This document shows positions 1,452-64,000 of a DNA stretch of 64,000 nucleotides, one piece after another. The stretch lies in the sequence record PZ445440.1; one strand, written 5' to 3'. The notes beneath the pieces are model-generated. The model made no database searches. It was given only the letters and a program-made list of their open reading frames with translations, and had not been told where the DNA came from. Within the stretch, counting starts at the first letter, position 1; each line of letters starts with the position of its first letter. This stretch comes from a phage. The position numbers and the translations under genes are program-made.

Positions 1452-1784
1452 TCACTTATAAAGACACGGAATAGCTTTATAGTGGCATGTTACGAATTTC
1501 TGTTTAATTTCTTTAGGTTGTTTAAGTCCCAAAGCCACAAATGGATGTGGAACATTTCGAATTTGTCCAACTGGTAGTGGAGTCAAATCACCGACTTCAA
1601 CAAAACCTTCAGGAACATCAGGACCTACAGAATGAACTACACATAGTTCAGGAACTTCACCTTGAACACGTTTACCAATCACGAGTCCTGATTCGGTAAC
1701 TTCTTCATCACCTGCTTGAGCGGGTTCAGAAACCAGAATGACATATTCACCAACAGCACGAATTGGGAGTTGTACTTCAGACAT
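1452..1784 (-). CDS. 31: capsid-folding co-chaperonin gp31 (GroES-like)
   Basis: 110 aa; sequence matches recalled T4 gp31 almost residue for residue. Confidence 0.85.
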
Positions 1785-1841
1785 CTTATTTCCTTGTTGT
1801 TTGACGATAGATTAATAATACCATACTATTCGTAAAGCATA

Positions 1842-2150
1842 TTACATAAGAAGCAAACGTTCTACCGGAGTACCGTCAACCGAAATTACTTTATCAAGGC
1901 GGAAAGAACGCCACTGACCTAACTTGGTATCGAATGCTCGAACTGATTCACGAGGTTCAGAACGAACTTCTGTTGCCGGATTGTTATTTTCATATTTGAC
2001 TTCAAGTTCATCGCGCGAAGCAAACATAGTGCGTACCTCACCGTTAGCCTTTTCAAATACAACACAATGAACGCCTACAGACAGAATAGTTTTAATACGT
2101 TCACGAAGAACCATAGTTTCTTGTTCAGTTAAAATCATATTATTCACCAC
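1842..2150 (-). CDS. hypothetical protein (102 aa), 31.1-position
   Basis: ORF track; between 31 and cd; stop overlaps cd region. Confidence 0.5.
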   Translation of the reverse strand: MVNNMILTEQETMVLRERIKTILSVGVHCVVFEKANGEVRTMFASRDELEVKYENNNPATEVRSEPRESVRAFDTKLGQWRSFRLDKVISVDGTPVERLLLM

Positions 2151-2721
2151 AAAAGTTTCGGATTTGTTCCCAATTCAGAGAACGAAGATTATTACGAGAG
2201 TACTGAATTACTTCAATACCAGCTTGTTTAAGAATGTCTGTCCAATTTTCAGGAGACCGGTCATATAATTCTGCATATACAACCTTTTTAATGCCTGACT
2301 GTGTGATAGCTTTAGTGCAATCAGGACACGGAGAAAGCGTAGTATATAACGTAGCACCTTCAATAGAATTACCTTTACGAGCAGCAAACAAAATTGCATT
2401 CAATTCCGCATGGATTTCGTTATTAGCAGACCATGCACTATGAGCGGCCCGATGTTCTTTAGCCAAAACAAAATTATCTGCCCGTCCAAATGCTGTAGTG
2501 CCTTCTTTATGCCCAGCAACGATGACCGGGCTTGGTTTATTCTTCAACCAACCTTGTTCGGTAGCATGGTCACAACAGTTTGTACCACCTGAAGGAGACC
2601 CATTATAACCCGTAGAGATAATGCGCCCATCTTTTTCAATGACGGCACCAACTTTCCATGAACAACATTTTGATTCTTGAGAAATCAAATAAGCAATTTG
2701 AAGATATGTGCTAGCTTTCAT
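2140..2721 (-). CDS. cd: dCMP deaminase
   Basis: 193 aa; zinc-deaminase motifs HAELNA...PCxxC (CDA fold); length equals T4 Cd. Confidence 0.9.
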   Translation of the reverse strand: MKASTYLQIAYLISQESKCCSWKVGAVIEKDGRIISTGYNGSPSGGTNCCDHATEQGWLKNKPSPVIVAGHKEGTTAFGRADNFVLAKEHRAAHSAWSANNEIHAELNAILFAARKGNSIEGATLYTTLSPCPDCTKAITQSGIKKVVYAELYDRSPENWTDILKQAGIEVIQYSRNNLRSLNWEQIRNFCGE

Positions 2722-3713
2722 TATTGAACCTTATTAATATAAGTTAACAGCTCTTTAGTTTGTTCCCAACTGATGCACGCATCGGTAACGGAAACGCCAT
2801 AGGACATATTATCAGAAATTTTTTGATTTCCTTCATGTAGGAATGATTCTATCATAATTCCTTTGACCAAATCATTAGCTGCTAAATTTTTACCAATACC
2901 AATTTGATTGCTATAATGCCCATCAGCGTTTGCATGGCTACAGTCAACCATTACATAATGATTCAGACCTACTGCCCTTGCTTTGTTAGAAGCTTCTTGA
3001 ATATCAGAAGAATGATAGTTCGGGCCGTTGGTCCCGCCACGCAATACGATATGCGTATTCTGATTACCTTCAGCTTCAACAATGCCTACAGTACCATCGA
3101 CGTCCATACCCATATACCGATGAGGCCAGGCGGCACTATACATCGCGTCTGTAGCTACTTTAATAGAACCATTAGTTGCGTTCTTGAAGCCTACGCACAT
3201 CGGTAGACCTGAAGCAATTTCACGATGTGTCTGACTTTCAGTCGTACGGGCGCCAATAGCAACCCATGAGAAAATACCAGAAAGATACTTAATCGTGAAT
3301 GGGTCTAATACTTCAGTTGCTAATGGAAGTCCCATACGTAGAAGTTTACGACACAATGTTCGTGCAACTATAAGTCCGTGGTTCATATCAAAACTTCCGT
3401 CAAGATATGGATCATTTACAAGACCTTTCCAACCTACGGTAGTTCGAGGCTTTTCAAAATAAACGCGCATCACTAACAGAACATTAGGAAGACGAGTTTG
3501 AAGTTCAGCCAGACGTTTGCCGTATTCAACAGCAGCAATAGGGTCATGAATTGAACAAGGACCTACAACAATAAGTTTGCGTGGGTCTTCACCGTTCATA
3601 ATCGAATTAACTTGTTCGCGATGAGAAGCCACTTGTGAGGCGTAAGCTTCCGACAAAGGAATAATCTCGGCCAGTTCTTTTGGAGAAATAAGTTTTCCGA
3701 CGACAGGTAACAT
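2721..3713 (-). CDS. 3-deoxy-D-arabino-heptulosonate-7-phosphate (DAHP) synthase, class I (AroG/AroF-like)
   Basis: 330 aa; long colinear blocks shared with recalled E. coli AroG (VVGPCSIHDP, VMRVYFEKPRTTVGWKGL, GARTTESQ.HRE.ASGL, GFKN, ILRGG, SHAN, ESHL.EGNQ, TDAC); TAAGGA RBS. Confidence 0.85.
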   Translation of the reverse strand: MLPVVGKLISPKELAEIIPLSEAYASQVASHREQVNSIMNGEDPRKLIVVGPCSIHDPIAAVEYGKRLAELQTRLPNVLLVMRVYFEKPRTTVGWKGLVNDPYLDGSFDMNHGLIVARTLCRKLLRMGLPLATEVLDPFTIKYLSGIFSWVAIGARTTESQTHREIASGLPMCVGFKNATNGSIKVATDAMYSAAWPHRYMGMDVDGTVGIVEAEGNQNTHIVLRGGTNGPNYHSSDIQEASNKARAVGLNHYVMVDCSHANADGHYSNQIGIGKNLAANDLVKGIMIESFLHEGNQKISDNMSYGVSVTDACISWEQTKELLTYINKVQ

Positions 3714-6757: not shown

Positions 6758-7110
6758 TCTGAGAGCTTCCTGAGGTCTTCTGCAAAGGAATCGAAGGACC
6801 TGTTGATTTGTTTTTCGACCAATCCTGGCTTACTTGCCACCACGTTCTTCTTCTTCGAATCCTGACGGAGCTTTTCATTTTCGGCCTTAAGTTGGTCAAC
6901 TAAAACACGGTTCTTATAAGTCATTTCTTCGATTGACTGATATTGAACCTTGAAGTCGTCTAATACTTTAGCATTGTTTTTAGCGGTCTCTTTGACAGAA
7001 GCTAATTCAGTATTCAACGAATCAACTTTGTTGTTTAAGACAACTATTGTTACCGTAGAAACTAGAGCAAAAGCTGCTACTATAGCATAAATCGGATTTA
7101 CTTTAAGCAT
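6754..7110 (-). CDS. inner-membrane spanin (i-spanin)
   Basis: 118 aa; N-terminal TM helix then charged coiled-coil-like region; overlaps o-spanin start. Confidence 0.6.
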   Translation of the reverse strand: MLKVNPIYAIVAAFALVSTVTIVVLNNKVDSLNTELASVKETAKNNAKVLDDFKVQYQSIEEMTYKNRVLVDQLKAENEKLRQDSKKKNVVASKPGLVEKQINRSFDSFAEDLRKLSE

Positions 7111-7598
7111 GTTTTAATAATCTCAATGATTTCATCTCGGGATAATCCATTGATAAGAACGGTTTTCAAACCATCACACTGGATTTTGTACGATTCAAAC
7201 AATACACACAACTCTTCTGCTGTATGATACGGGCTTGAAATTCCGAGGCGGTTGAATTTGTCGGTAAGAGGGTCGCAAATAATGTAGAATTTTATACCTG
7301 CGATATGTACGTTTGGTTGACTAATATTAATGAACACATTAGCGTCGTATTTAGTCAAATTGTTTTGAAGAAATTCTACCATGGCATTAACTGCTTCCGG
7401 CATTGCTTCACGTTTCTCTTCAGCGTATCGGGTGGAATACTCTTTTTGTTTTACTTTCTTTTTAAGATTTTTGGCTAGTGTAACACGTAGGTCAGTAAGA
7501 TAACCAACTGGACGTCCTTTCTTAAAGACTCGGATTCCGTCAGTTGTGTCTCCAAAAGCGGTTACGACCATATCGTTAGTAATCAATTGCATATTCAT
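7098..7598 (-). CDS. alc: host transcription inhibitor Alc (by synteny and size)
   Basis: 166 aa vs 167 aa for T4 Alc; lies between pseT cluster and rnlA as in T4; sequence not independently recognised. Confidence 0.5.
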   Translation of the reverse strand: MNMQLITNDMVVTAFGDTTDGIRVFKKGRPVGYLTDLRVTLAKNLKKKVKQKEYSTRYAEEKREAMPEAVNAMVEFLQNNLTKYDANVFINISQPNVHIAGIKFYIICDPLTDKFNRLGISSPYHTAEELCVLFESYKIQCDGLKTVLINGLSRDEIIEIIKTCLK

Positions 7599-7628
7599 AA
7601 TTTTCTCCTCGGGTTGTTGTTAAAAGCC

Positions 7629-7658
7629 ATAGTAACACCTTCCTTGGTGTTTGTAAAC
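7629..7658 (-). promoter_or_regulatory. T4-type early promoter
   Basis: Minus strand GTTTACA-N17-TACTAT upstream of alc. Confidence 0.5.
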
Positions 7659-7660
7659 CA

Positions 7661-8794
<1,134 letters not shown>

Positions 8795-8811
8795 TCAGTT
8801 AGTTTTTTTAA

Positions 8812-8841
8812 ATTGTACCACAATCCTTGTGGTGTGTAAAC
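8812..8841 (-). promoter_or_regulatory. T4-type early promoter
   Basis: Minus strand GTTTACA-N17-TACAAT upstream of rnlA; inverted repeat CCACAA/TTGTGG in spacer. Confidence 0.5.
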
Positions 8842-9251
8842 TACTTTTTCTTATGTTGGATATTCCAAGGCGGGTTGAACTTTTTGATAAAAAGTGGTTC
8901 TTCAAGGTCCATTGTTGCGATGGTCATTGAACCAAGTTCGTTGGTGACTGAAAGGTCAAAACATTGGCGGGCCCAGAATTCAACCTTTTTGCCTTGCATT
9001 AAGGCATCCAAAATCATAAGTGATTTTCTTGAATCTGAAGTCTGGTCTTTTCGATTTATGGCTGTTCGATAATAGTTAATGCGTTTCTTTAAATTCTTGG
9101 TTTTACCAATATACACAAGTTCGTCATCTATAGCAATAGCGTATATGACATTTTTCTTATTAGGGACATCGACTGTTTTAATTGTTGCATCTTCTAATAG
9201 CTCCAATTCTGTATATTTAATAAAGGAATATTCGGCGGCAATATCTTTCAT
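8841..9251 (-). CDS. denA: endonuclease II (GIY-YIG)
   Basis: 136 aa; GIY-YIG-like motifs (VYIGKT ... RINYY); position between rnlA and nrdB as in T4. Confidence 0.8.
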   Translation of the reverse strand: MKDIAAEYSFIKYTELELLEDATIKTVDVPNKKNVIYAIAIDDELVYIGKTKNLKKRINYYRTAINRKDQTSDSRKSLMILDALMQGKKVEFWARQCFDLSVTNELGSMTIATMDLEEPLFIKKFNPPWNIQHKKK

Positions 9252-9277
9252 AATAAAGTGGGACCGAAGTCCCGTCC

Positions 9278-10456
9278 TTAGAAATATTTTTTGTATGAAT
9301 TGATTACATTTTGGTCTACATCATTATCAATTTGTGCGACAAGATAAGAACTGATTTCAACTTCCTGAGGAGCTGCTTGAACTAAATCGGAATTCAGATA
9401 TTCACGAATCCATGGAATAGGATGGCGAGTTGATACGTCTTTAAGTGGACAAGGTAGACCACAACTACGCATACGAGATACAGTAAGGTAATCCACAAAT
9501 TCGCTTAGAATTTTAACATTTAGCCCTGGCAGAGCACCATCTTTAAACAAGTGTTCAGCCCATTCTTTTTCTTGAGCATTAACTTCCATAAAGATATCAA
9601 CGGCTTCTTTCTCACATTCTTTTGTGATCTGAACCCACTCATCACCATCTTCACCGTCTTGTAAAGCACGAATAATATATTGAGTGCCTTTAAGGTGAAG
9701 CTGTTCATCACGTGCGATGAACTTCATAATCTTCGCATTACCTTCCATAATTTCCATATTTTTATGGAAGTTGAAAGTACAAGCAAAAGATACATAAAAA
9801 CGAATAGCTTCCAAGGCGTTAATAACATGCAGGCAGAGATAAAGAGATTTCATTAGCTCACGCTTCCAATATGTCTCATGCTCAATAGCATCTTCAATAA
9901 CGTCTTCGTCTGCATTAATTTCTTTTTGGTATTCGATATCAGCTTTAGCATTTTCCCAATAACGAGTTTTAACTAAGACATCGTCGTAATAACGTCCGAT
10001 AGATTCAGCACGTTTCATAATAGCTTCGTCTAATACAATTTCATCAAATACCTTCGATGGATCGGTATAAAGATTTCGCATGATATGAGTATATGAACGG
10101 GAGTGAATAGTTTCACTGAAAGTCCATGTAGCAACCCATGTATCTAATGAAGGGTCTGAAAGCAATGACATAAGTACCGCAGATGGTGCCCTGCCTTGGA
10201 TAGAATCTAATAATGATTGATACTTAAGGTTGTTGGTAAAGATATTCTGTTGGAACTGAGGAAGCTTATTGAACTGGGCTGAATCCAGCATCAGGTTTAC
10301 TTCTTCTGGGCGCCAAAAGAACGAGAGTTGCTTTTCGATAAGCTCTTCAAAAACTTTATGACGTTGGATATCGTAACGTGCAAGACCAAGACCAGAACCA
10401 AAGAACATCGGTTCATTCAAAACATCGACTTGTTGTGTATTAAAAACTGTACTCAT
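9278..10456 (-). CDS. nrdB: ribonucleotide reductase small subunit (class Ia)
   Basis: 392 aa; di-iron ligand pattern (E..H motifs) and synteny; uninterrupted ORF. Confidence 0.85.
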   Translation of the reverse strand: MSTVFNTQQVDVLNEPMFFGSGLGLARYDIQRHKVFEELIEKQLSFFWRPEEVNLMLDSAQFNKLPQFQQNIFTNNLKYQSLLDSIQGRAPSAVLMSLLSDPSLDTWVATWTFSETIHSRSYTHIMRNLYTDPSKVFDEIVLDEAIMKRAESIGRYYDDVLVKTRYWENAKADIEYQKEINADEDVIEDAIEHETYWKRELMKSLYLCLHVINALEAIRFYVSFACTFNFHKNMEIMEGNAKIMKFIARDEQLHLKGTQYIIRALQDGEDGDEWVQITKECEKEAVDIFMEVNAQEKEWAEHLFKDGALPGLNVKILSEFVDYLTVSRMRSCGLPCPLKDVSTRHPIPWIREYLNSDLVQAAPQEVEISSYLVAQIDNDVDQNVINSYKKYF

Positions 10457-37049: not shown

Positions 37050-39263
37050 TTATTTGGCCGCTTCCACGGCCTTCATGAATTTAACGATTTGAGCGACCTG
37101 TTCTTTGGAAAGAGTACCACGTCGTCCCATGTATTCTGACACAATATGATAATTGGTTTCGAATTCAATAACCATTTTATCATCATTATCGTAAGCATTA
37201 TCTTTAAGCTTATCGAAAATTTTAGCACACAATTCTAACTTCTTATTCAGGTCTGTATTAGTAGCACCTGCGAATCGATTCCATCCCCAACGATTATTTA
37301 CTGTTGAGAGTTTTGCAAAGTCTTTACTGATTTCTTTGTTCTTAGAGCTAAAATACTTACTAAGGAAATTAAGCTCTTCATTACGAGTAATATGATTCAA
37401 ATAAGGCTGTGCTCTACGACTTGGTGATACATACTCATCATAATCTACTTTATCGATTAGCATAATATAGTCATTAATTGATTTTTCGAACAAGCATTCT
37501 ACTTCACCAAGTTTACGAACTTTCTTAGCAATCTGTGGACGAACTACATTGAACTCTTTAATACCTGACAAATCAGCAATACGGGTCAAGAAATTAGAGT
37601 CATAGTTCAACCAACCTTTATCTGCGTCAAGACATTCAGCATTAGAACGATTACGAACTATAGCATAACCTTGGATTTCATCAGCTTCACTCGCTGGAAT
37701 AAAGAGATCTTCTGATACCCAAACATCGTTTTCATTCTTAAAGAACCGATGAGCACTTGGCGATTTAGGACGAGGCTCATTAGTCCGTTTCCTGACTTCA
37801 ATCCATGGCTTAACGATTTGTAAAAGCTCTGAAGTCTTGTACATGTTAATGTTGTCGCCATCAAAGATAACTTTAAGGCGTTCCAGAAGTTTCATTGCAT
37901 CTTCGTCTGTAGGGTCAACGAATAGTACGCTTTTACCAAAACCGCGTGGAACTTTACCAGTTAATTTAACCTCGTCTTTAGACATTTCAATTGAATTAAG
38001 AGCTCGCATTAATGGAACGCGTCCCTTAACGTCGTCAATAACAATTTCAACGTTTTTAATGTTAATGCCAATCAGACTGTTAATTGAAATGGTTGCCGTT
38101 GAGCTACCGCTTTCACGAATACGACGAAGACGAGGGGATTCAACGATATCGTATACGACGCCAAGATTACACCATTCAGGTCCCATTTTAAAACGTTTGT
38201 ACAACTCAGAATAAGTTAGTTGTTCTTTAGAGTATTTCAGTGATTCAATATTAGACCCGGCCTTTTCCATGTATTTACGAGCGGTATAGCCAAGAGAATC
38301 AATTTCACGGAACACATGACGTGGGTATTTACAATCAATCCATTTCTTAGAATCTTCAGCGAACAATTTAGCATCGATTTCTGCAACGCGTTTATGGATA
38401 TTTGCTACTGTACGTTTATCAAATGACAATGCTTCACGAGACGGGGCTACATCTAGTTCACCCATAGGGAATTTAATATAAGCTGTAGTGCACCGCGTCA
38501 TCATCCATGTTTGTTCTTTAATAACACTTCCGATTGGATATACAATACCACCATAAACAGCCATGATATTACCACGTTCACCCCATGGAGCTTCCTTGGC
38601 CAAATATACATCGTCAAATTCTGGGAAGTATTTAATATCTTTAACACCGCGAACTTCTGCAATATCACCTAGAGGACGCATAACATATGCAATTTCGGAT
38701 GCGAACTTTTCAAAATCTTCCGGGTTAACCGGTACAACTACTTCTACACCCGTACGGTCATTAGGGCCCATCTTATCTACAAAGGTCGGCTTAATTTGTG
38801 GACCTGTGTCATCTTGGTAGATTACGTAACCACGAACTTCGCCATTGTGATAAGACGTAAGGTTAAACGTATCAGTATATGCTAGTGGAGCTTTAGAACC
38901 GAGTCCGAATCCACCAATGAAATCGTTACTCGATGTTTTAGTTGAAGCAAAATATGAGTTATAAATTCCTGGTTCTTCATCATTACCACGAATAGTGAAA
39001 TCACTCATACCAGGACCAAAGTCTCGAACTACAAAACGTGGGTCTAAACGACCTGGAGCCTGAACAATAAATTTATCAGTGCAACCATTAAGAATTTGTC
39101 CATCTATACAGTTTGTGATTAATTCACGTACACAAGCCAATTCTTTGTTTGTATAAAGGTCATTAGACAAAATCTTATAAACTTTACTATTGCCTTGAAT
39201 AGTGAATGCTGTGCTCTTACCGCCTGAACCAATAATCGTTTCTTTAGCCGTTTCAATAATCAT
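37050..39263 (-). CDS. rIIA: rIIA protein (GHKL-type ATPase fold N-terminus)
   Basis: 737 aa (T4 725 aa); N-terminal ATPase-like motifs; synteny with rIIB. Confidence 0.85.
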   Translation of the reverse strand: MIIETAKETIIGSGGKSTAFTIQGNSKVYKILSNDLYTNKELACVRELITNCIDGQILNGCTDKFIVQAPGRLDPRFVVRDFGPGMSDFTIRGNDEEPGIYNSYFASTKTSSNDFIGGFGLGSKAPLAYTDTFNLTSYHNGEVRGYVIYQDDTGPQIKPTFVDKMGPNDRTGVEVVVPVNPEDFEKFASEIAYVMRPLGDIAEVRGVKDIKYFPEFDDVYLAKEAPWGERGNIMAVYGGIVYPIGSVIKEQTWMMTRCTTAYIKFPMGELDVAPSREALSFDKRTVANIHKRVAEIDAKLFAEDSKKWIDCKYPRHVFREIDSLGYTARKYMEKAGSNIESLKYSKEQLTYSELYKRFKMGPEWCNLGVVYDIVESPRLRRIRESGSSTATISINSLIGINIKNVEIVIDDVKGRVPLMRALNSIEMSKDEVKLTGKVPRGFGKSVLFVDPTDEDAMKLLERLKVIFDGDNINMYKTSELLQIVKPWIEVRKRTNEPRPKSPSAHRFFKNENDVWVSEDLFIPASEADEIQGYAIVRNRSNAECLDADKGWLNYDSNFLTRIADLSGIKEFNVVRPQIAKKVRKLGEVECLFEKSINDYIMLIDKVDYDEYVSPSRRAQPYLNHITRNEELNFLSKYFSSKNKEISKDFAKLSTVNNRWGWNRFAGATNTDLNKKLELCAKIFDKLKDNAYDNDDKMVIEFETNYHIVSEYMGRRGTLSKEQVAQIVKFMKAVEAAK

Positions 39264-39275
39264 ATTTTTCTCTCA

Positions 39276-39476
39276 TCACAAGTTACGTTTAAAAATTTCT
39301 GCTACTTCAAGAAGTTCTTCTTTAGTAGCTGTATCGGTTTGTATTTTATATCGAATTTCTTTAAAGCGTTCTTTAAAGGACTCGGCTGATTCGATATCAA
39401 AAAATCTTTGGATAAGCCGGAATTCCCGGAGCACTGCTTTATCAAAAAGTTCCAAGTCCACGTTATATGTTCTCAT
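39276..39476 (-). CDS. hypothetical protein (66 aa), rIIA.1-position
   Basis: ORF track. Confidence 0.45.
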   Translation of the reverse strand: MRTYNVDLELFDKAVLREFRLIQRFFDIESAESFKERFKEIRYKIQTDTATKEELLEVAEIFKRNL

Positions 39477-39568
39477 AATATTCTCTTCAGTAGATTCCTA
39501 GGGCACTATTACTAAAGACCATATAATCTATCATCTTATGTGTAATAGTGCCTCAGGCTATTCAGGAT

Positions 39569-40669
39569 TTACGCTGTGAAGATTTTATCCCACATCGCAA
39601 CAACTGCATCTCGATTATACTTCTTCCATACTGCTTCAGCACGTTTAACTCGAGCTTCGTATGTGTCAGTGAATTCTAATACAGCTTTTGTGTAAAGCGC
39701 AACTACTTCTTTCTTAGGAGTAGAGGAATCAATTTCTACACGCACAGTATCTGGGTCGTATTCGAATGTCGCATGAGGATAATCCTTAAAAACTAACTGG
39801 ATTACAGGGACACCTTTAGAGATGGCTTCAATAGAACTATTCTCTACCGTACCTGTGTCAGGACACGTATTAATAAGTGCTTTAGCTGTTTTAAGACGTT
39901 CCATGATTTCACTGTGTGGAGCATCAATAATAACAGGATACTTAGCCGGTGGTGCCCATTTGCTTGGACAGTATCCTGCACCATTTTCGCCTAGTGCTTT
40001 AATCGCTTCAAGAGCAACATCAGTACGACGCATTTTAGTGTCATAACGTTGTGCACTAATAATCAGATCAGTCGCCGGAAGAACTTCAGGTTTCTCATTC
40101 AAACAAATAACTGGATAATCTTCGGCTTCAAACAACGGATTTGCTCGCCAATAATCATAATCAATTTTGTCAGTCAGACCTGAAGTCATATAACAATATT
40201 TGCGTTCAAATTCACGGAAGGCTTTAGTAGGAGCATAACTCTTACCACCATTCTTATGAATTTGAATAGTCTGGTCCCAAATTTGAACAATGCCACGAGA
40301 TACCGGTTCAAATGGTGTTGCCATAAAATTCTTATGAACTTTAGAGAGACCTGCGTCTTTAATTGCCTGAACGGTTAGTTTAGTCGGTTCCGTAGTAACA
40401 ACAAAATCGTATTCATGGATGTCGGCTAGTTCAACAATCTTACGAGCCATAGTATAACTCATACCTAGACTGAATTTAGTCAGATGACCAACAGGATGAT
40501 GATTAACTTTCCAGTCACCAAACGTGTCATTATCAAAACCGATATAATCAATATCGGCACCAATAGAAACTAAATATTTCAACACATTTAAATGTACTGC
40601 TTCAAGACCACCTTGTACACGTTCTGGGTTAAATGGGACTGCGCGCGATGGGATAAACATAACTTTCAT
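39569..40669 (-). CDS. putative GT-B fold glycosyltransferase (candidate DNA glycosyltransferase)
   Basis: 366 aa; N-terminal GG.E sugar-donor-binding-like segment (ERVQGGLEAVHLNVLKYL) and C-terminal E-x7-E-like/GxPVI segment (ENSSIEAISKGVPVIQ) typical of GT4-like enzymes; not similar to recalled T4 a-gt or b-gt. Confidence 0.55.
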   Translation of the reverse strand: MKVMFIPSRAVPFNPERVQGGLEAVHLNVLKYLVSIGADIDYIGFDNDTFGDWKVNHHPVGHLTKFSLGMSYTMARKIVELADIHEYDFVVTTEPTKLTVQAIKDAGLSKVHKNFMATPFEPVSRGIVQIWDQTIQIHKNGGKSYAPTKAFREFERKYCYMTSGLTDKIDYDYWRANPLFEAEDYPVICLNEKPEVLPATDLIISAQRYDTKMRRTDVALEAIKALGENGAGYCPSKWAPPAKYPVIIDAPHSEIMERLKTAKALINTCPDTGTVENSSIEAISKGVPVIQLVFKDYPHATFEYDPDTVRVEIDSSTPKKEVVALYTKAVLEFTDTYEARVKRAEAVWKKYNRDAVVAMWDKIFTA

Positions 40670-40711
40670 AATTAAGCCTTATTAAAATTAAAATGAAGCT
40701 CCCGAAGGAGC

Positions 40712-42529
40712 TTAGGACATCCATTCTTTACGAAGTTCTGAATCATCACCCATCAACATTTCAAAGAGTTCTTTCCAATTTTCAGGAAGTTTAACTACGT
40801 CGTACACAGGGTTCTGAATCATTTCACGATATTCTGACTTTTCAAGGGAGCCTAATCCCTTGATGTATCGAATACTATGCTTAGGCAGTGTATCTTTAAC
40901 TTCTTCATACTCAGCTACAGTATAAAACCATTTTTGAGTTTTGCCAATTTGTGCAATAATTACAGGCGTTTTAACAAAGCGAATACGTCCTTGTTCGAAC
41001 AATTCAGGCCAATTACTAAAGAAAGCAAGCAAAGCCGGATAGATACTTCCAAGACCGTCGTGATCTGCATCAGTCATAATTGCAATATTACGATAGTTCG
41101 TATTCTCTGCCTTTTCACCAAGAATAAGACCTGTGATAGCACAGATATCGAAGAGCTCTTTGTTCTTCATCATATCAGCATATGACATACCCCAGCTATT
41201 CATCACCTTACCACGTAATGGGAATCCGCCGTGTAGTTCACGGTCACGAACATCAATGAGATAACCAATTGCCGAATCACCTTCTGTTAAGAACAATGTC
41301 GTATCTGCATCTTTACCACATTGGTTAGCTTTAATATGCTTATGAACCTTAGCTTTAGTTGCCTTTTTAGCTGCTTTAGTTTCTGCAGCCTTTTCTGCTG
41401 CCAATTTACGAGCTAATGCTGCTTCAACAATAGGCATAATCAAGGCTTCGTTTTTAAGAAGCGCCTGAGCAATTTTCTTAGCATCTAATTGGATATGATT
41501 ACGAATATCACCATACGTTGACGTTAAACGTTCTTTAGTCTGAGAATCAAAACGCATGTTGCTCATGTCTCTAATAAACATCAACATTGTGAGGCATTCT
41601 TTAACACGAGCTTTAGTGACTTCAATACCCTTATATTTCTTTTTAATACCCGGCAAAAGATGTTCGCAGATATCATCCATTACACATTCAACATGATGAC
41701 CACCATTTTTAGTATGGATGTTATTCACATAAGTTAAATGACGGAAGCCATCTGGTGATGTTGTGAATGCTATAGAGACTTTATCATTTTCTTGAATGAT
41801 GTTATCTTCACCAAATTGTTTAGCAAATCGTTTAAAATTACCATCAACCTTTTTACCATTAAATGTGAACTTGATGTCAGGATAAACGACTGCCAATGTT
41901 TGAAGTCGGTCTAAAGTAATATCTAAATAAATTTGAGATAAATTATGCTCTTCAAATGAAGTGAAATCAGGAGTGAAGATTACTTTAGTGCCTCTACCTT
42001 TAGATTTCTTAGAAGACCATGATTTGTTTTCCATTCCGTTTGAACAGTTAACAGTGATTTCATTTTCGCCATCTGACGTGATGCCTGTAAACAACGTAGA
42101 GAAGATATTAGTTAAACTACTCCCGACACCGTTCATACCACCAGTCTTGCGTTCAGAGTCATCGCCAAAGTTACCACCGGCCTTTGGAATAGTCCAGGCT
42201 GCTACAGGCCCAGGAATTTGTTCACCTGTTTGGTCGGTAACTAAACCTTGAGGAATACCACGTCCGTTATCTTCCACCGAAACTTGATTATTTTTAATTT
42301 GCACATCAATTTTATTTGCAAACTTAAATGATGTACGAATAGCTTCATCAACCGAGTTGTCAATAATCTCATCGATTAATTTAACCAGACCAGGAACATA
42401 TTCAACTTGTTGATATTTACCAAACAAAAAACGCTCGTGGGCTTCTTTAGCCGAAGAACCAATATACATACCACTACGTTTCTTAATATGTTCTACATCT
42501 GACAATACCTTAATTTCATTTTTAATCAT
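40712..42529 (-). CDS. 39: topoisomerase II large subunit gp39 (GyrB-like ATPase + TOPRIM), single fused ORF
   Basis: 605 aa; GHKL ATPase motifs (EIIDNSVDEA, GGMNGVG) and TOPRIM (EGDSA, DADHDG); no separate gene 60. Confidence 0.9.
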   Translation of the reverse strand: MIKNEIKVLSDVEHIKKRSGMYIGSSAKEAHERFLFGKYQQVEYVPGLVKLIDEIIDNSVDEAIRTSFKFANKIDVQIKNNQVSVEDNGRGIPQGLVTDQTGEQIPGPVAAWTIPKAGGNFGDDSERKTGGMNGVGSSLTNIFSTLFTGITSDGENEITVNCSNGMENKSWSSKKSKGRGTKVIFTPDFTSFEEHNLSQIYLDITLDRLQTLAVVYPDIKFTFNGKKVDGNFKRFAKQFGEDNIIQENDKVSIAFTTSPDGFRHLTYVNNIHTKNGGHHVECVMDDICEHLLPGIKKKYKGIEVTKARVKECLTMLMFIRDMSNMRFDSQTKERLTSTYGDIRNHIQLDAKKIAQALLKNEALIMPIVEAALARKLAAEKAAETKAAKKATKAKVHKHIKANQCGKDADTTLFLTEGDSAIGYLIDVRDRELHGGFPLRGKVMNSWGMSYADMMKNKELFDICAITGLILGEKAENTNYRNIAIMTDADHDGLGSIYPALLAFFSNWPELFEQGRIRFVKTPVIIAQIGKTQKWFYTVAEYEEVKDTLPKHSIRYIKGLGSLEKSEYREMIQNPVYDVVKLPENWKELFEMLMGDDSELRKEWMS

Positions 42530-52322: not shown

Positions 52323-52844
52323 TTAGTAACCATTATCCTGACGTTCAAAGTTGTGTTGGTTTTTCAGATAATACAGTTTGAAGATTTCTTCAGCAGAAAG
52401 TCCTAGACCTTGGAACATATTCAGAACAAAGTGGAGGATATCAATCATCTCGAATTTAATTTCAAGCTGGTCTTCAGGAGACAGTTCATCGATACGACGA
52501 TTTCGATATTCAGCATGTTGTGCTTTCCAAGGCTTCCATACAGAGCTAGCGGCTTTTTCACCATTGCTCATACCGCCGAGTGAAGTCAGCAGTTCACGGA
52601 ATTCATCATCAATATAATCTTTCTGATTACGCAGCCAATCAACAACATCACCAGCAGTAGCCAATTCATCAGGATGTTTGTTATGTTCAGGCTTGTCATT
52701 TGCCAGACGAACCTGTAAAGATTTCTGCATATCAAGCATTACCTGCAGTGGGTCTTTATCTTCGTGAATCAGAGCATTAAAATAAGCTTCTTCTGCTTTA
52801 TCAACACCAGAAATAAGTTGTGAACATTCGTTAAAGTGTGCCAT
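52323..52844 (-). CDS. 56: dCTP pyrophosphatase gp56 (MazG-like)
   Basis: Track ORF trimmed to MAHFNEC start; about 173 aa; close match to recalled T4 gp56. Confidence 0.85.
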   Translation of the reverse strand: MAHFNECSQLISGVDKAEEAYFNALIHEDKDPLQVMLDMQKSLQVRLANDKPEHNKHPDELATAGDVVDWLRNQKDYIDDEFRELLTSLGGMSNGEKAASSVWKPWKAQHAEYRNRRIDELSPEDQLEIKFEMIDILHFVLNMFQGLGLSAEEIFKLYYLKNQHNFERQDNGY

Positions 52845-60710: not shown

Positions 60711-61259
60711 TTAACGAGCCCATTTGATGATTTCTGTAATCAAATCATTACGTTCGCTTGCATTAAATCCTATAACTTTGTTAGCACCATCATGATTAAG
60801 TAATTGATACGTTTGGATTTTGTTATGAATTGCAAACTCTTCAAAATGTGAAATGACTGTATTAAAACCGAATGAAGACAAAGTAATAAGGTCGTCTTCA
60901 AAACTTTCAGTCATTTCGTTACGTGTTAAAATAATTGTGAACACATCATGGTTTTGGCAAAGACGAATATAATCCTGTTCATAAACGTCAAGAACCGAGT
61001 CCGCATCTTGTCGAATACGTCCATAAACCCAGTTACTAATATACCCACGGTCTAACAGATAAATCTTAGTAGGGTCTAAATAATTCAACATCGTTTCGAA
61101 ACAGCCAACTTCGTTTCGAGACTTAACATCGAAACGCCCATCAACTGTTCGTTTAGGGAAATCAATCTTTACATATCTTTCACTAATTTCCATTACGTCA
61201 TTAATGAAAGTTGTTTTACCAGCATTATCCGGGCCGTCTACTAAAATAATTTTAGCCAT
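60711..61259 (-). CDS. P-loop nucleotide/nucleoside kinase-like protein
   Basis: 182 aa; Walker A GPDNAGKTT and DRGY motif (LLDRGYISNW) typical of dNMP/thymidylate-kinase fold; no T4 counterpart recalled at this position. Confidence 0.55.
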   Translation of the reverse strand: MAKIILVDGPDNAGKTTFINDVMEISERYVKIDFPKRTVDGRFDVKSRNEVGCFETMLNYLDPTKIYLLDRGYISNWVYGRIRQDADSVLDVYEQDYIRLCQNHDVFTIILTRNEMTESFEDDLITLSSFGFNTVISHFEEFAIHNKIQTYQLLNHDGANKVIGFNASERNDLITEIIKWAR

Positions 61260-61260
61260 T

Positions 61261-62160
61261 TTATTCCTCGATTACGACATCTTCGTATTTAGGTATATTA
61301 TACGGTGAAGAAATTAAAGCATTAAAGTAGATGAACTCACCAAGACCTGGATGGAATACTTCTTCAGGATTTTCGAAATATTGAATCTTCGGACGTCCTT
61401 TAAGAATTTGATAGTACTCAGTTTTAGTTGGTTTAAAAATTCGAATCAGCGCTTCTTCAGGATACTTATTTCTGTCGAAGCTATTATTTGGATCGGTTAT
61501 ATAAAGCGGTTGACCTAATTGAATTGCACATTCAACCACTTGTTCAAAACGATAGCATGGGTCACTAATTCGAAATGGATGAAAAATACCATCTAGATGA
61601 ATAGGAGCCAAATCACCTACAAGACGCTGCATGATGGAAGGACGTATAACTTTCTGGGTTATGATAATCTTATTACCATCGGCACCTGCGTTAACCAGCA
61701 CTTCTTTTTGACGTTCATTCAACACAGTAGTTTGAAGTGAACGATTAACAGACAACATATCGGTTTTTAAGAATTCGTCAATATAAAAACGTGGTTTATT
61801 AGGGTCTGCAGTGATATTGAAATTGAATTCTACATCAAAAGCGCCGTCATATCCAGTGATATCTGTGATTAGAAAATCACAATCATAATAAGCAATTAAT
61901 GAATCAACCACAAATTCATTTTCAGACCAGAAATATTTACGAGTGTTATACGCGTTATCTTTATACCATAATGGAACAAACTTAAATTCTGGGAAAAGAC
62001 GTTCACATTCTTTAATATCAGATGCATTACGTGGATATGTAATCACATCACCCGGATTAGCACGGTGCAAATGAAGTTGGAAGTTGCCATCCTTAAGGAT
62101 AGCATACTGTCCAGTTTCATAAGACCGCATACTCAAGATAGGTACGCGGAAAATAGCCAT
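61261..62160 (-). CDS. hypothetical protein in the beta-gt slot (possible divergent DNA glycosyltransferase)
   Basis: 299 aa; occupies the uvsX-42 interval where T4 encodes beta-glucosyltransferase; weak motif resemblance only (YY...TDI; RFEQVVECAIQLGQPLYITD). Confidence 0.35.
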   Translation of the reverse strand: MAIFRVPILSMRSYETGQYAILKDGNFQLHLHRANPGDVITYPRNASDIKECERLFPEFKFVPLWYKDNAYNTRKYFWSENEFVVDSLIAYYDCDFLITDITGYDGAFDVEFNFNITADPNKPRFYIDEFLKTDMLSVNRSLQTTVLNERQKEVLVNAGADGNKIIITQKVIRPSIMQRLVGDLAPIHLDGIFHPFRISDPCYRFEQVVECAIQLGQPLYITDPNNSFDRNKYPEEALIRIFKPTKTEYYQILKGRPKIQYFENPEEVFHPGLGEFIYFNALISSPYNIPKYEDVVIEE

Positions 62161-62876
62161 TAGTCAAGGAATCCTTTAACATAATCAAAATCACGTTCAA
62201 ACACATGGGCACTTACCATGGTATGAGTATAATCACCAACTTCTACACCACATTCGTTAGCGATATAATGAAGTAATTTTCCTTGGAGATAAAAATCCAA
62301 CTGCATAACAACAGCACAGTTCTGAGAACGCATATGACAGTGGGTATAAAGCTTACCATCACGAATATAATAAGTCACTGAGTCAGTACATGGATATTCA
62401 AGCGTTTCGTCTGAATCAAGCAAAGCCTGATCAGAACTTTCTAGAATTTGGAACACAACTCTTCGAGAGTTAGGCTTCTCTTTAAGTTCTTTTAGAAGAG
62501 CTGGTAATTGGGCCGCAATGCGAGGACCGTAGAAAGTGTTGAAGTTCGCAGGCAAAGCATCTGATTTTGGTTTAGAAATAAATTTAGCGACATTAGGATA
62601 TGCCTTAAACGCTTCTTCTGCATCAGTACCACCAGAAATCATAAACTTCCAGAAGTCTTCGGCATATTCATAAGAGATGCGGTTAATACGTGGGTCGGTC
62701 ATTTTGAATGATGATGGAGTGTCAACAACTACTGTCATAGACCCAATTTCATTACAACGTCCAATACGAGAATCAGTTACGAATTCCGGGTTTTCTAAAA
62801 TTTCACGATTGACTGCTTTAAATGCGGTTTGAAAATCTGCGGCTTTGATATATTTCATTGTGTTATGTTTTCCCAT
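62160..62876 (-). CDS. 42: dCMP hydroxymethylase-like protein (ThyA superfamily), divergent
   Basis: 238 aa; ThyA-fold catalytic region (YPCTDS...YYIRD...HMRSQN...) and position upstream of uvsX; clearly divergent from recalled T4 gp42 sequence. Confidence 0.65.
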   Translation of the reverse strand: MGKHNTMKYIKAADFQTAFKAVNREILENPEFVTDSRIGRCNEIGSMTVVVDTPSSFKMTDPRINRISYEYAEDFWKFMISGGTDAEEAFKAYPNVAKFISKPKSDALPANFNTFYGPRIAAQLPALLKELKEKPNSRRVVFQILESSDQALLDSDETLEYPCTDSVTYYIRDGKLYTHCHMRSQNCAVVMQLDFYLQGKLLHYIANECGVEVGDYTHTMVSAHVFERDFDYVKGFLD

Positions 62877-62918: not shown

Positions 62919-63158
62919 TTATTTGAATTTCTTGGCAGTGTTGATATACCGTAAAGCTTCAGCATCGATACTTCCAAGAACACTATGAAGAAATGCATCA
63001 GCGTAGTATTCTAATTGAACAGGTTCTTTAATCACTTTAGCCGCTTTGGTTTCAAACAGGCCCATCAGGGCCTTTTTAAGAATTTGTTCGTTGCTGTTAA
63101 TTTTAATAGTCAAAATCTCTTCATTAAGTTGGTGGTTAAAAGTTTTTCTAGAAATCAT
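62919..63158 (-). CDS. hypothetical protein (79 aa)
   Basis: ORF track; not hydrophobic, so not an Imm homologue. Confidence 0.45.
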   Translation of the reverse strand: MISRKTFNHQLNEEILTIKINSNEQILKKALMGLFETKAAKVIKEPVQLEYYADAFLHSVLGSIDAEALRYINTAKKFK

Positions 63159-63961
63159 TCCGGGTACCTCAAAGCGTCGTCAGAGTTAGTTATATCAATA
63201 ATAGATATAGAATTTTCTGATAACCCATTTTTAGATAACTGACGTTTATAATATCTTTCACAATATGTACACGTCGTCCCGCAGATTTCATTAGCACAAT
63301 CGAAATCTGGATGTCTGAACCACCTTTTTTCTAAAAAGCCATCTAACAAAGAGGTTTCAATATTTACTGTATGTGAAAACTCAGTTTCGTTTTCAAGAGT
63401 GAAAATAGTCTCTAAAGGCTTCCACAGTTCTAACAAATTACCTTCAAACTTTTCAGAAGCGTATGCTTCAAGAACTTTCAAAATGTAGTCTGTGCTACCT
63501 GTACGTCCTGAAACTTTGAATTGAGTGATACCAATATCATTATAAAGTTTCAAATCTTGGGGACGAACAAAACGAGTTCTCAACCAGTTAAATGGGTCTG
63601 TATCACGAGCTTTAATACAGTGCTGCATTGGATACCCGTTTAAGGATTTAGCATCATCAGCTGTAACATCAGTACTATGGAAAATATAGCAAGAGTCACG
63701 ATAGCTACAATGTGTTGTATACCCTTTACCAGCATTAGAACAGAACTCATTTACAAGAACTTCAAATATTATATTGTTCTTATTGCAAAACTCTGCTGCA
63801 CGCTTCAGGAAAGAAACTGAACGGTTCTTATGAATTCCACAGCAGACCTTTTTGATATTATATTGGTCATGCAAGTATTTGATTTGAGTTACAGCATCGA
63901 CATGTAGAATTGTTGAAACTTCAATCTCAATGTCTTTATTGACTTCACGAACAATTTCCAT
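63155..63961 (-). CDS. Cys-rich protein, possible metal/Fe-S binding (268 aa)
   Basis: 11 Cys including CC pair and C-terminal CxxxCxxC (CGTTCTYC); no T4 counterpart recalled between 42 and 43. Confidence 0.5.
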   Translation of the reverse strand: MEIVREVNKDIEIEVSTILHVDAVTQIKYLHDQYNIKKVCCGIHKNRSVSFLKRAAEFCNKNNIIFEVLVNEFCSNAGKGYTTHCSYRDSCYIFHSTDVTADDAKSLNGYPMQHCIKARDTDPFNWLRTRFVRPQDLKLYNDIGITQFKVSGRTGSTDYILKVLEAYASEKFEGNLLELWKPLETIFTLENETEFSHTVNIETSLLDGFLEKRWFRHPDFDCANEICGTTCTYCERYYKRQLSKNGLSENSISIIDITNSDDALRYPE

Positions 63962-64000
63962 AACAACAGGGTTAGCGATAGTAATACGCCATACGCCTAT

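Follow-up and report, generated by a model that had tools for sequence, protein, structure and literature searches.

A GT-B glycosyltransferase gene between rIIA.1 and gene 39 of Escherichia phage Bas46, with a probable role in adding the second arabinose to 5-hydroxycytosine DNA

The gene between rIIA.1 and gene 39

The DNA analysed here, called the window throughout, is a stretch of 64,000 nucleotides from a phage (sequence record PZ445440.1). On its minus strand, at positions 39569..40669, the listing of open reading frames (ORFs) holds an ATG-initiated frame for a protein of 366 amino acids, exactly where the initial annotation had placed a glycosyltransferase. A 2.2-kb query (positions 39000-41200) is 100% identical to record MZ501056.1, which is Escherichia phage ChristianSchoenbein, or Bas46, a member of the BASEL collection and of the genus Mosigvirus; about 150 further Mosigvirus records match the same query at 95-99% identity. 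Subtracting 32478 from a coordinate of MZ501056.1 gives the coordinate in the window. The gene is bas46_0103 in the Bas46 record, where it is labelled “putative hmC-arabinosyltransferase” and is the sole gene to carry an arabinosyltransferase label. It is far beyond a chance ORF, because a tblastn search meets it in 212 records of phages and because a protein approximately 98% identical to its product has been crystallised.

Downstream of the gene lies rIIA.1 (39276..39476, minus strand; 66 aa, Pfam T4_RIIA1, E=2.1e-30), with rIIA next (37050..39263), and upstream lies gene 39 (40712..42529, minus strand), whose 605-aa product is the topoisomerase II large subunit with HATPase_c, DNA_gyraseB and TOPRIM_C domains. 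The gene had initially been described as inserted between rIIA and gene 39, at the place where T4 carries rIIA.1 and gene 60. It does sit beside gene 39, but rIIA.1 is still there, and the gene is thus found between rIIA.1 and gene 39. Of the two T4 genes, rIIA.1 is kept, whereas there is no gene 60 of its own, since gene 39 codes for the entire large subunit, including the TOPRIM_C part.

Read from the sequence, an AAGG ribosome-binding site (40677..40680, minus strand) stands 7 nt before the ATG. Just upstream of the gene, and overlapping the gene 39 stop codon, a G+C-rich hairpin, with a stem of 7 bp and UUCG as its loop, is followed by a T-rich tail (40696..40713, minus strand). Its form weakly suggests a terminator-like or RNA-stabilising element; the promoter and terminator scan saw 1 such site against 1.1 expected by chance, and its number of sites was no higher than in shuffled sequence. 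The intergenic space between the gene and rIIA.1 holds a 16-nt inverted repeat, 88% complementary, with a 29-nt loop (39497..39557, assigned to neither strand), and an Rfam search over the locus returned zero families. The GC content of the gene (0.39-0.41) is like that of its neighbours, and therefore carries no composition signal of recent transfer.

Protein family and fold

Searched against Pfam at E<=10 and against NCBIfam at E<=1, the 366-aa protein has no match at all, and therefore no CAZy or Pfam family can be assigned from sequence. Only PHROG 8302, a family of “unknown function”, covers it, over positions 1-366 of 366 and with E=4.6e-222. When every PDB sequence was searched with phmmer at E<=10, a single distinct sequence came back, that of entries 9iqz and 9ir0 from phage HY126 (E=2.3e-247), an ortholog that differs from the Bas46 protein by 8 substitutions in 366 residues (about 98% identity) and in nothing of substance. 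The family is small: among 1.84 billion cluster representatives, a profile search brought up only 12 proteins at E<=0.001, of which about eight are full-length. One distant member (P0010) has a sub-threshold match to PF20706, GT4-conflict (E=0.0028).

In an alignment of ten diverse family members, the invariant residues are G20-G21, E94, T118-P119, R125 and Q207-R208-x-D210-x3-R214, followed by a second block, N267-T-C..G273-T-x-E276..S279-x-E281-A-I..G286-x-P-V-x-Q-L...H299-A-T-x-E303-x-D305-P306. The invariant glutamates E276 and E281 have E-x4-E spacing and lie inside TGTVENSSIEAISKGVPV. Going by the alignment, G20-G21, R208, E276 and E281 resemble donor-site residues, and their layout resembles that of a GT4 donor site.

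For the fold we lean on the solved HY126 structure rather than on a predicted model. The AlphaFold2 model of the Bas46 protein, built on a 6-sequence alignment, has a mean pLDDT of 63.7; its N-terminal domain is poor, and only the C-terminal Rossmann-like domain is confident (about 85 over residues 190-360). By Foldseek the model matches 9ir0 with E=4.9e-54 and a TM score of 0.72. The titles that Foldseek gives are “phage HY126 glycosyltransferase” for 9iqz, an apo structure, and “phage HY126 glycosyltransferase with UDP” for 9ir0, both released 2025-07-16, and binding of UDP by the 98%-identical HY126 protein is thereby shown. After the HY126 entries come PimA (2gej), WaaG, BshA, a tetrahydrobiopterin glucosyltransferase and sucrose-phosphate synthase (6kih), which reproduces the like structural matches published for RB69 gp3 by Lee et al. 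2026 (PMC13326640).

The protein has a GT-B fold, as initially annotated, and its resemblance to GT4 exists at the level of the fold only. Cellular GT4 enzymes (PimA 2gej, WaaG, BshA, 6kih) are the closest non-phage folds, at Foldseek E values of about 1e-9 to 1e-8, and, like it, have a loop rich in Gly near the N-terminus and, at comparable positions, an Arg and Glu residues of the donor site. They differ from it in that identity is 11-15%, that the phage protein has no Pfam GT4 domain and E-x4-E in place of E-x7-E, and that its proposed acceptor is glycosylated DNA. Measured against GT4 membership (Glycos_transf_1/Glyco_transf_4), then, the nearest fold is that of GT4, while neither an HMM match nor the E-x7-E spacing is found. 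The bipartite GT4 signature that had been read into the sequence is undetectable by Pfam and NCBIfam profiles and survives as a GT-B, GT4-like fold.

The claim that the protein does not resemble the DNA glucosyltransferases of T4 held up, in that phmmer against the PDB (E<=10) found only 9iqz/9ir0, and neither T4 alpha-GT nor T4 beta-GT is among the best 50 Foldseek matches. T4 alpha-GT (GT72) and beta-GT (GT63) are like it in having a GT-B fold, a UDP-sugar donor, a DNA substrate and an anti-restriction purpose; they differ in their acceptor, the hydroxymethyl group of hmC, and in their sugar, glucose. In the pathway of the Bas46 gene, base and sugar are 5-hydroxycytosine and D-arabinofuranose according to the literature (PMC13326640, PMC13390438).

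Arabinosylated DNA and the copy number of the family

Where the gene sits, how its product folds and what it is proposed to do are already on record: the gene was published in 2018 and is annotated in the source record, a structure was released in 2025, and papers of 2025-2026 assign it the role favoured below. Arabinose in the DNA of RB69 was discovered by Thomas et al. 2018 (PMC6024577), who nominated ORF003c as the arabinosyltransferase because HMM/HHpred comparison likened it to GT-B enzymes, T4 alpha-GT among them, a similarity at HHpred level only, with about 10% identity to the phage G homolog. RB69 ORF003c, or gp3 (NP_861693.1), is the same gene as the one in the window, 366 aa long and placed between rIIA.1 and gene 39. 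The initial annotation had pointed to a novel glycosyltransferase near rIIA in some T-even relatives with arabinosyl-hmC DNA; that gene is real, being the ortholog of RB69 ORF003c (PMC6024577), but the base is 5-hydroxycytosine and not hmC. Lee et al. 2026 (PMC13326640) report that cytosine is wholly replaced by mono- and di-arabinosylated 5-hydroxycytosine, with arabinofuranose ether-linked at C5 of a base that is 5-hydroxycytosine rather than hydroxymethylcytosine (PMC13326640, PMC13390438). By NMR the RB69 modification is beta-D-Araf-(1->3)-alpha-D-Araf-O5-dC, and that of Acinetobacter phage DLP3 is a trisaccharide (PMC13326640). The di-arabinosylated DNA product has been shown in RB69, Bas46, Bas47 and NP, and Bas46 DNA is reported as double-arabinosylated (5-arabinose-arabinose-hydroxy-cytosine); the non-T4 sugar modification that had been suggested for this DNA is thus di-arabinosyl-5-hydroxycytosine.

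At the gene-42 position, which the initial annotation rightly called remodelled, the window carries a ThyA-like enzyme, a second glycosyltransferase and a kinase. The ThyA-like 5-hydroxy-dCMP synthase (bas46_0142, 62160..62876, minus strand) is labelled 'dCMP hydroxymethylase' and matches Pfam Thymidylat_synt. It is near-identical to PDB entries 9iqc/9ir2/9iqu (E=4.5e-162), whose IDs are adjacent to those of the HY126 glycosyltransferase, and its motif RSQNCAVVMQLDF is identical in DLP3 gp80, an experimentally confirmed 5hodCMP synthase. In an approximate placement by MAFFT onto E. coli ThyA, this motif falls two residues off the register that would give the published D169N/N177D signature. 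A flavin-dependent ThyA homolog produces 5-hydroxy-dCMP (PMC13326640). Next to it, the 299-aa glycosyltransferase GT#1 (bas46_0141, 61261..62160, minus strand), labelled 'hypothetical', is the ortholog of RB69 gp46:47 and of DLP3 gp79 (45.9% identity to the latter); it has neither a Pfam match nor a PDB sequence match, and BLASTP finds no similarity between it and the 366-aa protein (E=6.6). RB69 gp46:47 has been proposed as the first (alpha) arabinosyltransferase, acting on 5-hydroxycytosine (PMC13326640). From annotation and Table 1 of PMC13326640, a nucleotide (thymidylate-like) kinase orthologous to RB69 gp45 lies at 60711..61259 (minus strand), and annotation gives a dCTPase/dCDPase, the gene 56 homolog, at 52323..52844 (minus strand; 84801-85322 in the record). 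An RB69 gp50-like gene (bas46_0144, 63155..64000, minus strand) is 5'-truncated by the window end, just past which the UDP-arabinofuranose genes bas46_0145-0148 are annotated. Beside the 366-aa ORF, the Bas46 genome hence holds genes for the synthase of 5hodCMP, for GT#1 and for UDP-Araf synthesis, which makes the pathway complete, and its GenBank labels 'hmC-arabinosyltransferase', 'dCMP hydroxymethylase' and, for GT#1, 'hypothetical protein' are outdated.

A tblastn search of 50,697 phage records with the 366-aa protein found 268 copies in 212 records, made up of 156 Mosigvirus-type records with 1 copy each and 56 Acinetobacter-type records with 2. With DLP3 gp76 as the query, the totals (212 records, 268 places) and their distribution over organisms were unchanged, and every listed Acinetobacter-type record had two copies. 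The 'Tegunavirus' match was rejected as a third clade, for 'Tegunavirus sp. BRC001' is a mislabelled Acinetobacter-type phage with two copies; JK45, whose split match gave it the look of a natural knockout, was also rejected, as its partial duplicate stands beside a copy that is intact. GT#1 was found in 349 records, and phages of Serratia, Klebsiella, Yersinia, Proteus, Enterobacter, Edwardsiella and Pectobacterium are among them without the 366-aa family. A comparison of the two tblastn searches by their counts per organism suggests that the records with the 366-aa family also carry GT#1.

Where the chemistry of the DNA has been measured, which is in a few phages (LC53, Thanatos, RB69, Bas46, Bas47, NP and DLP3), the number of copies equals the number of arabinoses minus one: copies of 0, 1 and 2 track 1, 2 and 3 arabinoses in LC53, in RB69, Bas46, Bas47 and NP, and in DLP3, respectively. 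LC53, whose DNA is reported as mono-arabinosylated, has GT#1 only and no second glycosyltransferase in its modification cluster, and its rIIA.1/39 junction holds two small unrelated ORFs and no glycosyltransferase; in Klebsiella phage Marfa the same junction holds a 107-aa ORF. DLP3 has two full-length members, gp77 and gp76 (beta-arabinosyltransferases 2/3), which share 42.8% and 40.8% identity with the Bas46 protein and have its invariant motifs. They are tandem paralogs that adjoin the kinase within the modification cluster, and DLP3 makes a trisaccharide, whereas Bas46 has one copy, relocated to a place about 20 kb off, and makes a disaccharide. Because gp76 and gp77 are 57.5% identical to each other and 41-43% to the Bas46 protein, the Bas46 gene is co-orthologous to a pair that was duplicated in the Acinetobacter-phage lineage. 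Copy number that tracks chain length is the prediction for a chain extender, and the opposite of the prediction for a first transferase. A strict rule of one paralog, one sugar does not strictly follow, since both gp76 and gp77 are needed in DLP3.

A probable second arabinosyltransferase and the alternatives

In the reading that we prefer, and in which we place good confidence, the 366-aa enzyme links a second Araf to O3 of the one already in place, after replication. The ThyA-like enzyme (62160..62876) would make 5-hydroxy-dCMP, which kinases and the polymerase would bring into DNA, while the dCTPase would keep dCTP out, so that only modified C enters. GT#1 (61261..62160) would then join alpha-D-arabinofuranose to the C5 oxygen, and the UDP-sugar-dependent enzyme of the 366-aa ORF would move a second D-arabinofuranose from UDP-Araf onto O3 of the first sugar, on the DNA itself. 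The product would be beta-D-Araf-(1->3)-alpha-D-Araf-O5-dC, the disaccharide of Mosigvirus DNA, and the extra sugar would alter the range of host nucleases, glycosylases and other defences to which that DNA is open. Two parts of this scheme are what we infer: that the second arabinose is added by the 366-aa enzyme, and that this happens after replication.

A functional analogue of this step is known from other T-even phages, in that the beta-1,6-glucosyl-alpha-glucose transferase of T2/T6 makes gentiobiosyl-hmC. There, too, a second sugar is transferred onto a sugar already present on a modified cytosine in DNA; the T2/T6 enzyme differs in that its sugar is a hexose from host UDP-glucose, its base is hmC, and its protein family is another one.

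The literature agrees on the role. Gp3 is designated 'beta-arabinosyltransferase 2' in PMC13326640, as a proposal, without the mark that denotes experimental confirmation, and PMC13390438 likewise proposes a second-sugar role for the gp3 family. For the Acinetobacter paralogs it has been shown in vitro that they lengthen the arabinose chains of DNA with UDP-Araf as donor: DLP3 gp76 and gp77 jointly add a third Araf to RB69 DNA (PMC13326640). Catalysis by the 366-aa protein, from UDP-Araf onto arabinosyl-5hoC DNA, is proposed. A literature search that did not reach the likeliest primary papers on Bas46 and HY126 found no direct assay of the 366-aa protein or of RB69 gp3. The text of PMC13216743 that cites Mahler 2025 states that deletion of 'the arabinosyltransferase Aat' makes Bas46 susceptible to a plasmid-borne defence system, and leaves the gene of Aat unnamed there.

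The same in vitro results bear on where in the chain the family acts. Were the 366-aa protein the base-proximal transferase, placing the first arabinose on the modified cytosine while the 299-aa protein does something else, the nomination of ORF003c by Thomas 2018 (PMC6024577) and the arabinosyltransferase label, given in the Bas46 record to bas46_0103 only, would be explained; against this, the DLP3 members are idle on 5hoC-DNA alone and extend DNA that is already arabinosylated (PMC13326640). GT#1, moreover, is syntenic with the single glycosyltransferase of mono-arabinosylated Thanatos (PMC13326640), and mono-arabinosylated LC53 lacks the 366-aa family yet keeps GT#1 beside its ThyA-like gene, and we regard a first-sugar role for the 366-aa protein as quite unlikely. 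Nor do we think it likely, with only slightly less doubt, that the protein works solely in a complex, as a homo-oligomer or with GT#1, where it would give acceptor or DNA binding instead of being an autonomous second transferase. Such a dependence would fit the requirement in DLP3, whose glycosyltransferases are inactive singly and add the third sugar only when both gp76 and gp77 are present (PMC13326640), and it would fit the several chains in the PDB entries (e.g. chain H). Mosigvirus, however, has one family member only, UDP is bound in 9ir0, and G20-G21, R208, E276 and E281 are kept in all members, which argues that each of them is catalytically competent.

The fold comparison raises the question of whether the acceptor is DNA at all, since lipid and LPS glycosyltransferases (PimA, WaaG) are the nearest non-phage folds, as would suit an enzyme that glycosylates a host or phage LPS, lipid or protein. 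Such a target is highly improbable: the family is limited to T4-like phages having the 5hoC-arabinose pathway, its copies in Acinetobacter phages lie within the DNA-modification cluster, its copy number tracks the length of the arabinose chain, and its paralogs act on DNA in vitro (PMC13326640).

Transfer of the second arabinose by the 366-aa enzyme also leads to a question of stereochemistry. GT4-like scaffolds belong mostly to retaining enzymes. If the 366-aa enzyme is retaining, its beta-(1->3) product would call for a UDP-beta-D-Araf donor, and GT#1, which forms the alpha link, would then be inverting. A tentative view, which we find conceivable while leaning somewhat against it, is that the family, with its 12 representatives, its E-x4-E spacing and no Pfam model, forms a GT-B lineage of its own, isolated in sequence and specialised for an acceptor sugar on DNA, and that, should the GT4-like scaffold mean retention, the phage may use opposite stereochemical mechanisms on one donor, UDP-beta-D-Araf, with GT#1 as the inverting partner.

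Arabinosylated 5-hydroxycytosine has only recently been recognised as a hypermodification of DNA. With it, Mosigvirus and related phages escape restriction enzymes, the glycosylase Brig1 and CRISPR-Cas of type I, and it exposes them to other systems such as BrxU/GmrSD (PMC13216743, PMC13390438). The length of the arabinose chain probably tunes this balance between evasion and exposure, and the second sugar is likely determined by the gene between rIIA.1 and gene 39, which is relevant to the choice and engineering of therapeutic phages.

Annotation of the modification genes

The GenBank labels of two adjacent genes at 61261..62160 (-) and 62160..62876 (-) in the window are outdated. The first of them, bas46_0141, is the other glycosyltransferase of the window (GT#1) and probably the first arabinosyltransferase; it is annotated as a 'hypothetical protein', and in some other phage records it carries the label 'RNA polymerase binding protein'. 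The second, bas46_0142, is labelled 'dCMP hydroxymethylase', while its near-identical counterparts in HY126 and RB69 make 5-hydroxy-dCMP.

Paired copies in Acinetobacter-type phages

The family of GT, the proposed second arabinosyltransferase (39569..40669, -), occurs twice in record OZ038340.1, at 145284-146399 and at a second place, and one of these copies is 85% identical to DLP3 gp76. Two copies is the state found in all Acinetobacter T4-like phages, and the organism name on the record, 'Tegunavirus sp. BRC001', looks wrong. In the Acinetobacter phages (DLP3, locus L003, locus positions 7001-9296), the kinase is followed directly by both GT paralogs and then by the gp40 and gp41 homologs, whereas in Bas46 and LC53 the place next to the kinase is held by uvsX.

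The surroundings of GT and the rIIA.1/gene 39 junction

On one side of GT, most of the 92-bp spacer that separates it from rIIA.1 is taken up by an inverted repeat (39497-39557; 16 nt, 88% complementary, with a 29-nt loop). On the other side, a hairpin (40696-40713, -) with a 7-bp stem and a UUCG loop overlaps gene 39 at its stop codon; a T-rich run comes after it, and it adjoins the GT ribosome-binding site on its upstream side. This hairpin could serve in transcript attenuation or stabilisation; one site of this type is also the number that shuffled sequence yields by chance. In Shigella phage JK45 (NC_054940.1; locus positions 1501-3400), an intact GT copy is followed by a tandem duplication of about 500 bp, 100% identical, which includes the inverted repeat and creates a 136-aa chimeric ORF where the first codons of rIIA.1 (MRTYN) are joined to GT residues 237-366. 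This duplication is either a very recent event or an assembly artefact. The JK45 record is placed in Tequatrovirus, yet its GT locus is 98% Mosigvirus-like.

What lies between rIIA.1 and gene 39 varies among T4-like phages: GT in Mosigvirus, small unrelated ORFs in LC53 (locus positions 2394-2949) and Marfa (locus positions 2357-2680), and gene 60 in T4.
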